Assembly: GCA_001776505.1 (NCBI GenBank)
Contig: MFBV01000044.1
Location: 1-38,941 of the forward strand
Source: Candidatus Curtissbacteria bacterium RIFCSPLOWO2_02_FULL_40_11
GTDB taxonomy: Bacteria; Patescibacteriota; Microgenomatia; Curtissbacterales; GWA2-41-24
Direction of reading: 5' to 3'
Length of the DNA stretch: 38,941 nucleotides
The notes under the pieces were generated by a model. That model was not told the DNA's origin and did not search any database. It saw only the letters and a list, made by a program, of their open reading frames with translations. A program made the translations under genes and the position numbers. Numbering within the stretch: position 1 is the stretch's first letter; every line of letters starts with the position of its first letter. Below, one piece after another: positions 4,537-33,400 of the stretch.

Positions 4537-4569
4537 TAGACCGCTCGCGTTCGCAAGGACATTACCTTA

Positions 4570-4605
4570 TTACTTAGGTAAACCCAATTTATCTATTATA
4601 TCCTT
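4570..4605 (-). pseudogene. rpsO: First displaced rpsO 3'-end copy
   Basis: AAG GAT ATA ATA GAT AAA TTG GGT TTA CCT AAG TAA = [11 protein letters not shown], identical peptide to the rpsO end with 9 synonymous nt differences. Confidence 0.92.
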
Positions 4606-4673
4606 TATTAAGAACGGCGCACTATTGAAACAACGATTTCAATAGTAGTGTAGTCCTTAGCAAAGATATTATT
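4606..4673 (-). other. Structured spacer (attC-like hairpin) between active and displaced rpsO ends
   Basis: AATAATATCTTT-GC-..AAGGAC..ACTATTGAAA-TCGTTG-TTTCAATAGT..GTTCTT..TA; homologous to the spacer after rpsT. Confidence 0.7.
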
Positions 4674-4938
4674 TCGGCAAGCCTAGTTTATCAATAATAT
4701 CTTTATATCTTTCTGGCGCTTTTCTCGTTAAAAAATGAAGGAGTCGGCGCCTTTTATTGATCATTGATAGGAGGCCTCTCCTAGAGTGATTATCATGAGA
4801 GTGATTTTTTAGGTGATCTGCAACATTGCCAATTCTCTGAGAAAGAAGTGCTACCTGAACTTCTGGAGAACCGGTATCACCCTCGTGAGTTTTAAACTTG
4901 TCGATTACCTGTTTTTTTGCAGTCGATTTTGTAGCCAT
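4669..4938 (-). CDS. rpsO: 30S ribosomal protein S15
   Basis: [24 protein letters not shown]. Confidence 0.99.
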
Positions 4939-4964
4939 TTTGATAGGGGCTTAGTATATAGAAA

Positions 4965-6008
4965 TTATGATTCTCTGTCAAAAGATTTAGATCCTCGATA
5001 GACTTTAGGCGGTTTTAACCACGCTTTTTTAGAAGCTTCTTTTGATTCCACATCTTCAATAGGTATTGTAGATTGCTCTTCAGTGTATAAAGGATTATTG
5101 GGCCCTTGAATTGACGGGATAGTTGGTGATTTTACTCTTTGGATTCTATCCATGTTTGGTGATTGTGTCTGTTGGTAATTAATCCCGGATATTCTGTCTA
5201 TTTTAATATCTCGTTGCTTGAAGATTTTATCGTACGTATGTCTGCTTGCTAAATTCACCTCTCTAGACTCGCTGGCGAGGCTGGCTCTACCTGCTCCTAA
5301 TTGTAATAAATGCTTTGCTACCTCTAATGTTGAAGGCGCTGTAGATTTTGGGGAAAACATTTGGGTAGTTAATTTTATTCCAGAATATAAATTGAAAGAT
5401 ATATCTTCATCGAACGGCAGCGCAAGATCAGTAATAATTCTTGTGGTCAACTCGCTAATAGTCGCTGCTTCTGGATCATCGAGTTCAATTTGTGCAAATT
5501 TCTCGGGTGGTTTGTTTTTATTAATAGACATGATCCACTTAGTTGAACTATTAATTTGCTCACGAGTAATTTCATTATTCATTTCTCCTGCTGAACTGAA
5601 CCCAATCGCGATAACCGTGTCTGGGTAAGAAACACTTTTGTCCAGAGAAATACTATCTTCAGAAATTCCTTCTGCACCCGCAAGTGCGTGTACCTTAATT
5701 TTTAATTCATCACCTTCCAGGTTGTAAGTTACTTTATCCACTGTATTGATTGCATTGTTAATTACTATAACTAAGTCTTCTTTCCCTTGTAGTTTGCCGA
5801 TTTTATCCACACCATATAAGTTGTTCGCATCGTTAACTGTAGGTTCACTTGCTATTACATTTGCATTTTTACCTGTTTTTTTTATCGACAGATAAAGTGC
5901 AAGTCCAGATGCAAGACCGTCAAAACCGCTTTTTTTTGAAACAGCTATCAATATAGTTTGGGAATTAGAAAGTTTTTCAAGTATTTGTTTTTTTTGGAAA
6001 TCTTCCAT
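4965..6008 (-). CDS. DHH/NrnA-like phosphoesterase-fold protein (degenerate active site)
   Basis: DGLASGLALY, ATISEL and LYSGI..T..F motifs; no DHH triad; low-complexity C-terminus. Confidence 0.65.
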   Translation of the reverse strand: MEDFQKKQILEKLSNSQTILIAVSKKSGFDGLASGLALYLSIKKTGKNANVIASEPTVNDANNLYGVDKIGKLQGKEDLVIVINNAINTVDKVTYNLEGDELKIKVHALAGAEGISEDSISLDKSVSYPDTVIAIGFSSAGEMNNEITREQINSSTKWIMSINKNKPPEKFAQIELDDPEAATISELTTRIITDLALPFDEDISFNLYSGIKLTTQMFSPKSTAPSTLEVAKHLLQLGAGRASLASESREVNLASRHTYDKIFKQRDIKIDRISGINYQQTQSPNMDRIQRVKSPTIPSIQGPNNPLYTEEQSTIPIEDVESKEASKKAWLKPPKVYRGSKSFDRES

Positions 6009-6066
6009 GTTATTGAGTAATCAATTTATCCAGAAAATATTTTGATTTATTAGCAAGGATACAATT

Positions 6067-30305: not shown

Positions 30306-30354
30306 CACCTCCGAGGTGTTCTCTTGTCGCCGACCAGACTTCACCTCGGAGGTG
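30306..30354. repeat. Paired 13-mer palindromes CACCTCCGAGGTG / CACCTCGGAGGTG
   Basis: 30306-18 and 30342-54 are reverse complements of each other and each self-folds. Confidence 0.8.
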
Positions 30355-30360
30355 GCTAGA

Positions 30361-30414
30361 TCACGGTTTTGCTAAAGAAAATGGACAGATAGATTTATAA
30401 GCACAGTATACACA
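30361..30414 (-). pseudogene. Displaced recoded 3'-end copy of the helicase-nuclease gene
   Basis: CVYCAYKSICPFSLAKP* versus active CNYCAYNSICPFSLAKIT*. Confidence 0.93.
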
Positions 30415-30418
30415 AGTC

Positions 30419-30437
30419 CCCTTCGACAAGCTCAGGG
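30419..30437. repeat. REP-like CCCTTCGACAAGCTCAGGG
   Basis: Family members at 18853, 21263, 32970, 34595. Confidence 0.8.
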
Positions 30438-30446
30438 TGCATGCAA

Positions 30447-33400
30447 TTATGTAATCTTTGCTAATGAGAAAGGACATATCGAATTATAAGCACAATAATT
30501 GCATGCAGGTTCGCGGCCGAAATATTTGGGATTGGCTGCGAAATGATTGTTAGTAATATCCCTTCTGATATTGTCTGCGGTGTCTATAATTAATTTTTCG
30601 GTTTTTTCTAAAGTTTCTTGGGTCGGAGTATAAAATCCTTCAATTCCGGTTTCTAAAAAATGGAGCGTGAGTTTTTGGGGAATAATTTTGTGGCTTTTGT
30701 AATAATAGAGAGCGTAGACTGCAAGCTGAGTCGATTCTTTAGCCTGGCTATTCGCTCTTCCCTCGTCAATATTTTCTGAAGATTTGTAATCTATAATTTC
30801 GACTTCGGAACCTTTTCTAACGTCTACTCTATCGAATCGACCGGTAATCGTAACGCCCGACAGAGAAAACTTGAAGGGTGATTCAATGAGACTGGGAACG
30901 TCTTTAGTTTTTGATTCACGTTTATAGAATTGCTCCAGGGCAATTTTACCTTGAGCTTTTCTTTTTTCTTCATGCTCAACTGTTAAAAATCCTTCGCTGT
31001 CCCAGGCATTTTCAAAAACTTCTAGAAGATTTCCCAGCGACATTAGCTGTCCGCTTTTTTTAACTCGAAAAAACTGGGCAACTGCCGTGTGAAGAGCGGC
31101 GCCATAAGCAATTGCATGATGACGAACTATGGGAAGACGTAAAATGTGCACATAACGATATTTAAAAGCGCAAGTTAAATAATCGTCGATCGAACCTTGG
31201 GTAAGTTTTAAAACGTCAACGTCGAATAAAACTTGTTGGCTCGTCTGCCAGCCGGTGGATGTAGGGGCTGGTGCAAACTTTTCAATTTTTTCAAGTGGAG
31301 ACAGTTTGGTAAATATACTATCTGCTTTTGGCTTATCAAGCGCTTCCAAAACAAATGGTGAAATCTTTTTAAGCCTTCTGCCTCCAACATCCCGTGACCA
31401 AGAAAAGTACGCTAAATCCATGGCACGAGTTACCCCAACATAAAAAAGCCTCCTTTCCTCCTGCATATGCCAATCACCAGAGGGCAAAGTTTCGCGAATA
31501 ATTTTTTCTGGAACCTCTATTGCTTCACCACGATATCGGCTAGGGAATCTGTCGGATACCAAATTAACCATAAAGACAACCGGGAATTCTAAGCCTTTAG
31601 CACCGTGAACCGTCATGACATTAACGGCATCTAAGTCGGGATCGAACTCAATTGTTGCCGGGTCGTCTCCGGCAGACCGAAGAGCCTCGAGGTATTCTAT
31701 GAAATTTTGAGTCGAATTATTAGACGCAACTTGTTCAAACTCTTTTATCTTGTCGAAAAATTTGGCAATGTTTTGGATTTTTATCTGCCCTTCCACTTGG
31801 TTCTCGCGATCTAACCGCGTGAGATATCCGGTGCGTTTTAGAAAATCGTATAAAACTTTGCCAACATTTTGGCGACGGGAGAGCTTGATGGATTCATCTA
31901 AGTCATTCAAGATTTTTTCGATAATTGATTGGCTTTCGCTAGATAATTCGAATTCTTTAAGCCCCATACCCATGTCATCCTGAGGAGACGCAGTCGACGA
32001 AGGATCTTGTGATTCTTCGCTTCGCTCAGAATGACGTCTCTTAGAGCTAGAATGTATCTCCAAATTCTTTAATAAATAGTACAAAGATCGATTCTTTTTC
32101 TTTGCAAAAGACGTCAGTTTGATAGCATCGGTTGGTGGTAATTGATAAATGTCCGATGTTATTAGGTTGTAAATATTTAAGCTATCTTCAAAATTTGTAA
32201 TTGCAGTAAGATATGAAATTAAAATACTGACTTCTTCTTGCTGATATAGGCCAGATGAACCAACAAACTTGTGAGGGATACCTTTCATATTAAGTGATCT
32301 TAAGAAATGATCAGCCTGGAAATTGGCGCGAACTAAAATTGCAAAATCTCTGTATGTGTAACGCTTAACGCTTTTTTGATTTATCAATCTTTCAATTTCT
32401 TCAGCAACCAGATCGGCTTCTTCGCTCAGCGTGTCCGCAAAAATTTCCTGAGGCAAATGCCCGACATTAGTTTTGATGGATTTGAGTTTTTTATCAATTT
32501 TATTTTGGACTTCCAATCGGTTTGGGTCATTGTGCCTAATTAAGCGGTAAGCGCTGTCTAGAATTTTTTGAGTGGATCGATAATTAACCGTTAAAACTAC
32601 CTGTTTTGTTTTTGGATAATTTTTCTTAAATTCTAAAATGTTGGAAATTGCAGCGCCGCGGAATTTATAAATCGATTGATCGTCATCGCCAACTACACAA
32701 ATATTTTTGTGAGAGCTTGCCAAAGTTTTGACAAGTTCGTTTTGGGCAAAATTTGTATCTTGATATTCGTCTACCAAAATGTATTTAAATTGTTGTTGAT
32801 AATTTTTTAAAAGTTTTGGGCGACGCGTGAATAGTTCAATCGTTTTAACAACCTGGTCACCAAAATCTAAAAATCCAGCTTCGTCTTTAAACTTTTCATA
32901 TTTTTCAAAAGCATGCGCAAGTTCTTTGTATTTTTTTGCTTCTGCTTTCTCATCGCCTTTAGCCTTTAGCCCTTCGACTTTGCTCAGGGTTAACTGGCGT
33001 TTAACGTATTGCGAAAACTCAGCTGGACTGACGTTCTCGTCTTTTAGTCTTGAGAAAAAATCTAAAATTGACGAAATAAATTTTGTGGGATTACTAAGCG
33101 GCCGCCAATAATCTAACTCAAATCGAAACAAATTTTGCTGGAAAAATAAAACTTGTTGGGGCTTGCTAAAAACCTTGAAGTCTGGTGAAAAACCAATTTC
33201 TAAAGCGTTTTCACGAAGAACACGGTCACCAAAAGCATGGAACGTAGAAATCCAAGTGTCGATAAAACCGTATGGAACGAGTTGGTCGACGCGCTCTTCC
33301 ATTTCTCCGGCAGCCTTGTCTGTAAAAGTGAGTGCCAAAATTTCAGAGGGTTTGGCTAACTTTTTTTCAATAATGTAAGCAATGCGCCGAGCAATTACTG

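Follow-up and report, generated by a model that had tools for sequence, protein, structure and literature searches.

The DNA studied here, which we call the window, is the whole of contig MFBV01000044.1 (38,941 nucleotides) of Candidatus Curtissbacteria bacterium RIFCSPLOWO2_02_FULL_40_11, a very small bacterium from groundwater (assembly GCA_001776505.1). It is one of the 45 contigs of a 938 kb draft genome that contains runs of N and is 95% complete; this genome is referred to below as G000. In three genes of the window, rpsO, rpsT and a gene encoding a helicase-nuclease, the last codons are duplicated, so that an active tail closes the reading frame and an older, displaced tail lies untranslated just downstream. 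The active tail is in each case part of a discrete unit with a fixed order: a first segment (X) located where the duplication begins, the remainder of the tail (the last 11 to 47 codons of the gene in all), the stop codon, 0 to 15 nt, an inverted copy of X of 8 to 14 nt that often contains the stop codon (X'), and a hairpin, with the next tail starting immediately after it. The features of the three loci, with the genes taken from a list of open reading frames (ORFs), are as follows.

4669 to 4938, minus strand: rpsO (ribosomal protein S15), coding sequence including the active tail (last 11 codons); matched in 41 of 41 relatives
4606 to 4704, minus strand: rpsO unit 1, 99 nt, with X at 4693-4704, the 11-codon tail, the stop codon at 4669-4671, X' at 4662-4673 and a family-A hairpin at 4607-4661
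4621-4630 and 4637-4646, minus strand: inner arms of the hairpin of rpsO unit 1
4537 to 4605, minus strand: rpsO unit 2, 69 nt, with a displaced tail at 4567-4605 (the same 11 residues), X' at 4555-4562 and a short hairpin at 4537-4554
4499 to 4536, minus strand: third rpsO tail, degenerate through a deletion of one base, a replacement and a premature stop; it is the last of the array and has no X'
20832 to 21098, plus strand: rpsT (ribosomal protein S20), coding sequence including the active tail
21021 to 21158, plus strand: rpsT unit, 138 nt, with X at 21021-21030, the tail, the stop codon TAG at 21096-21098 within X' (21096-21105) and a family-A hairpin at 21106-21158
21159 to 21254, plus strand: displaced rpsT tail with its own stop codon at 21252-21254; a second, weak match lies at 21138-21221
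30447 to 33503, minus strand: UvrD/PcrA-like helicase fused to a C-terminal Cas4/AddB-like nuclease, with a cysteine cluster in the active tail
30415 to 30507, minus strand: helicase unit, with the X arm at 30495-30507, the stop codon at 30447-30449 within X' (30438-30450) and a family-B palindrome at about 30417-30437
30361 to 30414, minus strand: displaced helicase tail
30306 to 30354, no strand assigned: inverted palindrome pair between the displaced helicase tail and the next gene, of a family that also flanks a Y1 gene on contig C30

An initial annotation of this DNA had claimed that the sequence overlapping each active stop codon is the reverse complement of the point at which the duplication begins, and had likened this arrangement to the attC sites of integrons. 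The three repeats, of 12, 10 and 13 nt, are exact, and their X arms lie where the tail duplications begin. At rpsO, 4662-4673 pairs with 4693-4704, with 19 nt between the arms and the stop codon at 4669-4671 within the downstream arm; at rpsT, 21021-21030 pairs with 21096-21105; and at the helicase gene, 30438-30450 pairs with 30495-30507. Eight of the 13 nt of the helicase repeat form a self-complementary octamer and part of this match is therefore a palindrome effect; the tail homology proper starts from about 30503, some 4 nt inside the arm. In the second rpsO unit the start and X' have changed together as claimed, 4605-4598 being complementary to 4562-4555 with one G.T pair. At all three loci the hairpin and then the old tail follow X'.

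This arrangement is not confined to the window. The gene set consists of crude ORFs, and several classifications were made by eye. For 976 of these ORFs we set the C-terminal 40 residues against the 350 nt downstream, translated in three frames, with the reverse complement as control. Fifteen genes scored 45 or more, compared with none in the control, and 27 scored 40 or more, compared with three. On inspection of the top 28 by eye, we judged 13 genes to have true tail duplications (rpsO, rpsT, the helicase gene, rplL, a membrane pyrophosphatase-like gene and eight more); the rest were one opposite-strand shadow of a true case and 14 neighboring paralogues or chance matches. In a second scan, of 997 ORFs, the longest perfect inverted repeat was recorded between the last 150 nt of each gene and the interval from 9 nt before to 30 nt after its stop codon. 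Repeats of at least 12 nt were found in four genes, three of which have tail duplications, and in none of the shuffled controls. The initial annotation had accepted that its reading would fail if such repeats were equally frequent at genes that lack a duplicated tail. The frequencies are far apart, since repeats of at least 9 nt are present at 8 of the 13 tail-duplication genes and at 24 of the 984 others. Over the genome as a whole there is no excess of repeats of this length (32 of 997 observed, 32 of 997 shuffled), and the stop-region inverted repeat is specific to the genes with duplicated tails. In all, at least 20 units are present, each of 42 to 200 nt, with a common fine structure, conserved hairpin families and no gene inside. 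The pattern-matching catalogue from which units were drawn is noisy when the arms are 7 nt long, and the entries used have arms of at least 8 nt and were checked by eye; a search for X, X', hairpin and X that was independent of hairpin family returned 269 merged matches, which are largely chance.

The two copies of each tail encode nearly the same peptide while differing at almost every synonymous site. The 13 tail pairs, 225 codons in all, differ by 127 synonymous and 66 non-synonymous changes, which correspond to a proportion of synonymous differences (pS) of 0.90, a non-synonymous proportion (pN) of 0.124 and a pN/pS ratio of 0.14. The 11-residue tails of rpsO units 1 and 2 exemplify this, with nine nucleotide differences of which nine are synonymous and none non-synonymous. 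Because the differences are coding-constrained, the tail pairs do not resemble a fresh local duplication in which the second copy has drifted. Two familiar sources of repeated gene ends may be set aside. Diversity-generating retroelements are ruled out, since the differences between copies are not adenine-specific, and target-site duplication by an ordinary transposon is ruled out by copies that are only 62-75% identical and biased to synonymous change. An array of five tails was observed in G000 at a gene on contig C22 (6726-8054, minus strand). The tails stand in the order a-b-a-b-c, and one and the same peptide of 12 residues is encoded by each; the two a-b blocks are about 98% identical, and tails a and b differ by eight synonymous changes, including a TCT/AGT serine switch.

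It was of interest to compare these loci with those of related genomes, which are few and related among themselves; G001, G002 and G023 are the congeners compared with G000. The rpsO locus was examined in 29 relatives, 24 from the same family and five from other families. Arrays of two or three tails are present in 8 of the 24 same-family genomes as well as in G000, three more being ambiguous (contig end or degenerate), and in none of the five loci from other families. In the nine genomes with arrays, X' matches the X of its own unit perfectly for 8-12 nt in 10 of the 12 non-terminal units, the two exceptions being displaced units, and matches the X of the next unit for at most 5 nt in all 12. 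The repeat thus coincides with the junction in other genomes too, as the initial annotation would have it. X and X' covary through at least five sequence types, and seven of the nine terminal tails have no X'. Among the 12 displaced tails, the peptide is identical to the active one in five, differs by one or two residues in six and is frameshifted in one. At rpsT, units were found in 2 of 30 loci, those of G000 and G020, which belong to different genera; both lie at the same codon and carry a family-A hairpin, and within X' the stop codon reads TAG in G000 and TGA in G020, in agreement with the X of the respective unit. At rplL, tail duplications are present in 2 of 80 loci, our own and that of a Candidatus Levybacteria record, and in none of the 78 others across bacteria. 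Among named records only a Levybacteria genome showed the unit geometry, Levybacteria being the nearest named relatives within the Patescibacteria, and overall at least 10 other species have the architecture in genomes that were assembled independently.

Comparison of close relatives shows that units are gained or lost precisely. At rpsO, G001 and G002 differ by a clean 69 nt insertion of one unit between closely matching flanks (gene body 96% identical, pS 0.16), and at this same point G000 carries a different unit, of 99 nt. G002 is without exactly the 138 nt of the rpsT unit. Empty sites, which the initial annotation had suggested looking for, were found in congeners at five loci besides rpsO, namely rpsT, the helicase gene, rplL, the pyrophosphatase gene and the C22 gene. 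The rplL unit is not present in G001 or G023, the pyrophosphatase unit not in G001 or G002, and the units of the C22 gene not in G001. At the helicase gene G001 and G002 have a single tail in its native context, and the palindrome pair at 30306-30354 is in neither of them. In these two genomes the helicase stop codon overlaps the start codon of the next gene, and in the window about 160-200 nt (the unit, the old tail and the palindrome pair) now intervene; translational coupling of the two genes, if there was any, would thereby have been lost.

The identity of the tails bears on where the units come from. Synonymous divergence between congeners (pS 0.73-0.77) is about equal to that between tails within one array, and the tails in one genome share lineage-specific residues. 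At rpsO three tail types occur in the order 3-2-1 in G000, 2-3 in G001 and 1-2-3 in G002, and where a type closes the array as a bare tail in one genome, in another it forms a cassette complete with X' and hairpin. The peptide of the displaced helicase tail of G000 equals that of the sole native tail of G002 (18 of 18 residues), and the active tail resembles that of G001. Over its first 26 nt the active rpsT tail agrees with the native tail of G002 at 25 positions, compared with 73.5% identity over the gene body. At the C22 gene, the terminal tail of G000 is about 90% identical to the single tail of G001, and two tail types are reversed in order in G023. Since the new tails match native alleles of other congeneric lineages, exchange between related lineages is suggested. 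At these few loci the comparisons point to cassettes that would have formed on native tails and then passed between closely related lineages; neither duplication in place nor import from distant groups appears to be indicated by them.

The hairpins fall into families. In the main class of units X begins with AA(A/G)G or similar and X' is then followed by GC(G); judged by eye, GCG is present in 13 of 16 cases in the rpsO arrays of relatives, and the unit ends in CTA in 10 of 12. Family A, about 53 nt long and built of an outer stem around an inner one, serves the units at rpsO, rpsT, rplL and the pyrophosphatase gene and occurs at two other places. Its outer stem shows compensating substitutions between copies and reads AAC/GTT in three of six copies, a fourth having a 5' arm GAC. 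Family B, a widespread palindrome, is used by the helicase unit and four other units, and family C by four or more; the hairpin of a unit on contig C38 (gene 24596-26308) belongs to the palindrome family found on the flanks of the Y1 gene of contig C30. In minimal units the "tail" consists of X plus 2-3 nt only. The unit on contig C18 that starts at 5416 (minus strand) comprises 54 nt (X, two bases, X' and a family-C hairpin) with no stop codon and in frame, and resembles an in-gene insertion. A copy of the family-B palindrome, at 21263-21292, lies just past the displaced rpsT tail in an orientation opposite to that of the helicase-unit copy, and is followed by a hairpin at 21296-21327.

Folded as DNA, the units pair X with X' and form the hairpin as well: -13.1 kcal/mol (z -3.3) for rpsO unit 1; -12.5 kcal/mol (z -1.6) for the rpsT unit; and -13.5 kcal/mol (z -2.9) for the helicase unit. 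The initial annotation had further predicted that the hairpin would extend into one long stem if a unit were circularized. A longer stem made from X', the hairpin and the next X is able to form at rpsO (z -2.6) and rpsT (z -1.5) but not at the helicase gene (-2.0 kcal/mol, z +1.0), and the idea of a long stem is to this extent supported at two loci of the three.

The explanation that we favor, with a probability of roughly 0.45, is that the units are small non-autonomous cassettes, each carrying the end of a gene, that pass between related lineages and insert at specific sites by way of folded single-stranded DNA, with an HUH enzyme of the Y1 type as the candidate catalyst. It draws on the anatomy and discreteness of the units, their complementarity to their own start, their coding-constrained divergence and the correspondence of their tails to native alleles of other lineages, all of which are observed. 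In outline, a unit would insert exactly before X of the resident gene. The reading frame would then enter the tail of the cassette, and the resident tail would be shoved downstream and left untranslated; serial insertions would produce arrays of displaced tails. Because the cassette supplies its own tail and stop codon, insertion into an essential gene would be neutral. Pairing of X with X' on single-stranded DNA, either DNA that has been taken up or the lagging-strand template, would set the 5' boundary beside the hairpin, the 3' boundary would lie at the other foot of the hairpin, and a hairpin-dependent enzyme would cut and rejoin both. We infer the cut-and-join step, the enzyme and the form in which the cassette is carried.

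Candidate enzymes are present. The genome has eight genes for Y1 HUH proteins (200-231 residues) that match Pfam Y1_Tnp above its cut-off. Seven of the eight have an own palindrome on at least one flank, and six have it on both; of the other flanks, one downstream is masked and one upstream has none. These flanking families recur at 2-23 places in the genome, and five of them form stems with the same foot as X:X' when inspected by eye; the family of the C30 gene is also the one used by the C38 unit. Leaving out the three ambiguous genomes, Y1 counts are higher in relatives with rpsO arrays (5, 9, 3, 1, 4, 0, 6 and 4; n=8) than in those lacking arrays (0, 2, 3, 1, 0, 1, 1, 1, 2, 1, 0, 1 and 3; n=13). 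The initial annotation had proposed mobilization through folded intermediates and a search for tyrosine recombinases of the IntI or Xer kind and for HUH enzymes. That search returned the eight Y1 proteins, which are like REP-associated tyrosine transposases (RAYTs; REP, repetitive extragenic palindrome) while scoring below the cut-off for that family, and four Xer-like recombinases, but no IntI. Given the eight Y1 genes a folded single-strand intermediate is plausible, and a Y1 enzyme is, from this circumstantial link, the most likely catalyst. Guide systems of the TnpB/IscB type are not represented by any match to PF07282 in the genome, which is 95% complete.

Several observations weigh against this explanation. 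Compared with NCBIfam, six of the Y1 proteins have the RAYT family as their best or only match, at 42-71.5 bits against a cut-off of 80. The hairpin families A, B and C, which serve most units, were not found beside Y1 genes when seven hairpin queries were run on 36 Y1 loci (111 kb); the best match, at 30.2 bits, equals the best of 20 shuffled replicates and lies about 1 kb from the gene. The only unit or locus hairpins cognate to a Y1 palindrome are those of the C38 unit at 24596, which has no X', and of the pair at 30306-30354. The association of Y1 counts with rpsO arrays is one among kin and is no independent test. G015 (86% complete) has a three-tail rpsO array and no Y1 match. The match of X' to the resident, or next, X is at most 5 nt, which makes any guide pairing with the target short. 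A minimal non-coding unit on contig C22 near 12397, in which the duplicated X is identical at 13 of 13 positions, fits local generation as well as import, and the birth of X' at a new gene is left unexplained by the cassette model. Finally, 20 public DNA runs contain the rpsO stretch, all as contigs, and in the contigs of the four that were compared with window positions 4000-23999 at 88% likeness (X9, X11, X13 and X14) there was no joint that matched a unit boundary, no circle junction and no unit-precise excision. Contigs are unable to show rare forms and the lack of such joints in these runs is therefore uninformative in either direction. In run X13 a contig tracks the window to the exact unit boundary at 4705 and continues with 255 nt of unrelated sequence; this is not a circle junction.

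Of the alternatives, the one that survives best, although we consider it unlikely, is an error of replication in place. A hairpin would stall synthesis, a snap-back of the nascent strand would copy a few bases of X in inverted form, and re-priming at a micro-homology just after the stop codon would copy the tail again. The product would be an inverted triplication on a small scale that pivots on the hairpin, and the arrays would then be spread and reshuffled by ordinary homologous recombination following the uptake of DNA. The direct-inverted-direct structure, with a palindrome at the pivot, is what such an event would leave behind, and small inverted triplications arising from replication errors are known in other organisms (PMC13334657, in the portion available). 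The 5' part of X' resembles the native sequence after the stop codon, judged by eye from the terminal and cassette copies of rpsO and from the helicase flank of G001 and G002, and the complementarity ends sharply, exactly at the unit boundary. The minimal units with an identical duplicated X also speak for an origin in place. In the cassette model too, as a guess, snap-back synthesis that runs off a nick at X would fit these features of X' and might make X' at a new gene. Against this, copies made in place would be identical at birth with the displaced one drifting thereafter, and what is found instead is a pN/pS of 0.14 with saturated synonymous sites. The new tails match native alleles of other lineages. 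The same hairpin family is present at the same rpsT codon in two genera and at four unrelated genes of G000, and the hairpin itself must therefore move. With a length of 36 nt and an identity of about 70%, the tails are also poor substrates for homologous exchange, yet the difference between G001 and G002 is unit-precise.

A rather more improbable alternative is an integron-like one, in which an Xer-type tyrosine recombinase would recognize the folded X'-hairpin-X and insert circular cassettes at X. The attC site of an integron cassette is a folded imperfect palindrome that is complementary to the first bases of the cassette itself; cassettes stack and reorder, and the crossover lies within the core GTT. 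Complementarity to the own start and the formation of arrays are shared by the units described here, which also possess two paired boxes and a small internal loop, and the outer stem of family A includes the AAC/GTT and GAC forms given above. The four tyrosine recombinases of the 0.94 Mb genome score best as XerC, XerD or XerA. Their numbers are not linked to arrays, however, with 3, 4, 4, 2, 2 and 1 in family members with arrays and 2, 2, 2, 3, 2, 3, 3, 1 and 3 in those without (15 genomes; no difference). No integron integrase was found in G000, the best scores being 123 bits for TIGR02249 against a cut-off of 265 and 72 for PRK15417 against 435. Moreover, there is no single attI platform; the cargo is an in-frame gene fragment of 11-47 codons in at least 13 scattered genes rather than a whole promoterless gene; the unit boundary lies after CTA and not in GTT, with AAC/GTT in only the three family-A copies; and the helicase unit forms no long stem. 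Of the integron-like geometry first proposed, then, the discrete stacked units, the complementarity to their own start and the precise gain and loss stand, and membership of the integron system does not.

Still less probable is an origin at the level of RNA. The X:X' stem and hairpin would act at mRNA 3' ends as stabilizers, terminators or processing sites, and units would arise by reverse transcription, or would be excised from RNA with use of both tails. Pairs of the G.U type do preserve stems on the sense strand, in rpsO unit 2 and in the outer stems of family A at rpsO and the pyrophosphatase gene, and most displaced rpsO tails are intact (11 of 12 identical or one or two residues off). 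A group-II-intron-like reverse transcriptase of 365 residues is encoded on contig C45 at about 9455-10552, and the window holds a broken one, a fragment at 17746-18003 (minus strand; Pfam RVT_1, 37.7 bits) with an in-frame TAG. On the other side, the differences in presence and absence lie in DNA, and copies of a gene's own mRNA would equal its resident tail. Instead of a T run, the unit hairpins have after them CTA and then the A-rich beginning of another tail, and for this reason they are not intrinsic terminators. Nor is there any Rfam match in the window at gathering score.

Quite improbable, in our estimation, is that the units are scars of larger integrative elements that were aimed at the 3' ends of genes and later deleted down to about 100 nt. 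Integrases replace the 3' end of the target gene and displace the old one, at tRNA genes and at some protein genes, and this 3'-end replacement, typical of them, is a likeness to the units. In keeping with it, contig C8 bears a tRNA-Gln gene (region 4200-4900, gene at positions 178-249 of it) whose 3'-terminal 17 nt recur unchanged 187 nt downstream (420-436), which makes the ends of RNA genes possible targets as well. Between the gene and the repeat lie a terminator-like hairpin, a partial copy of the T-arm and a family-A-like hairpin, and a similar inverted repeat adjoins tRNA-Gly on contig C1. The scar explanation is opposed by the number of units, at least 20 of 42-200 nt with the same fine structure and hairpin families, by the unit-precise 69 nt difference between sister genomes, and by the lack of integrase or phage genes beside the loci in the window. 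Finally, a metagenome assembly artefact that joined strain variants in tandem, to which a draft in 45 contigs with N runs might be prone, can be dismissed in view of the recurrence of the architecture in independent assemblies of at least 10 other species, the Levybacteria record among them, of the 8 public runs in which 0.99 of the words sampled from the rpsO stretch are present (possibly including the source of the assembly), and of the order of X, X' and hairpin, which is not the product of a mis-join.

The favored cassette model may be placed among known systems. In the orphan tips of rhs and cdiA and in pilin or shufflon switching, a new 3' end displaces the old one, which becomes untranslated, and serial arrays result. 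The displaced, untranslated ends left behind in arrays are shared with our units; the difference is that a new tip alters function and brings an immunity gene, whereas the tails here are isofunctional, housekeeping, 11-47 codons long and bounded by hairpins. In the literature searched we found no paper that links displacement of this type to hairpin elements. Rickettsia palindromic elements add residues to proteins; they are not known to supply a replacement gene end or to carry the target in inverted copy. They resemble our material in that palindromes are tolerated in coding regions, as in the 54 nt C18 unit and in lepA. Within lepA (elongation factor 4, 15705-17567, minus strand), an inverted pair of a 13 nt palindrome at 16907-16956 adds about 20 residues in frame, and the same palindrome flanks a Y1 gene on contig C37.

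The closest mechanistic precedents are hairpin-dependent. Y1 HUH enzymes cleave and rejoin single-stranded DNA beside a hairpin, and a short motif 5' of the hairpin helps to choose the cut (PMC8266576; 10.1101/279083; both in the portions available). In IS200/IS605 elements the cleavage sites at the two ends, and targets as well, are selected by pairing with a guide that lies 5' of the hairpin foot, and the intermediates are single-stranded circles (PMC8266576, same portion). The likeness to our units is one of geometry only, X' lying directly 5' of the hairpin and being complementary to the first 8-14 nt of the unit. The guide of IS200/IS605 is a tetranucleotide, compared with 8-14 nt here; the units have one hairpin rather than two subterminal ones and encode no transposase, and their cargo is the end of the target gene. 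With REP/RAYT systems the units share short non-autonomous palindromes, and the Y1 genes are flanked by palindromes of their own. REPs, however, are described as extragenic and high in copy number, in contrast to families of 2-23 copies here, and our units lie within gene ends, carry a replacement tail and a locus-specific inverted copy of 8-14 nt of their own start, and have main hairpin families that were not found beside the Y1 genes of the 36 loci. The tail units thus mix features of REP/RAYT and IS200/IS605 elements, integrons, integrative elements at tRNA genes and rhs-type displacement, and fall within the definition of none of these. We found no description of gene-tail cassettes in the literature searched, which did not extend to supplementary files, and we take them to be a new form of hairpin-dependent mobile DNA, with a fair chance that they make up a class of their own.

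More tentatively, we may regard the unit as a self-addressed, protein-less "homing gene-tail cassette", perhaps a minimal class of selfish element that spreads as single-stranded DNA between ultra-small bacteria by means of the RAYT-like HUH enzymes of its hosts. The inverted copy of the target beside the hairpin might then be the target address, the replacement tail might render insertion harmless, and the displaced tails might be fossils of earlier invasions; this is a doubtful proposal. If the cassette model is correct, an element of less than 150 nt can invade the most conserved genes harmlessly by bringing its own copy of the gene end. The choice of target by guide pairing of HUH enzymes would extend from 4 nt to a locus-specific 8-14 nt, which would be relevant to programmable insertion of single-stranded DNA, and the units would serve as a direct and datable marker of DNA exchange among uncultured Patescibacteria (the Candidate Phyla Radiation). 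What REP-associated transposases move would become testable with discrete substrates whose boundaries are known to the base. For annotators, short conserved "pseudo-tails" past ribosomal protein genes are not to be taken for noise.

Two minor observations may be added. The PNPase gene is the next after rpsO in the window. On contig C6 (about 33070-33263), copies of a palindromic motif of 9 nt, some direct and some inverted, are densely clustered downstream of a gene; this cluster is unrelated to the tail units.

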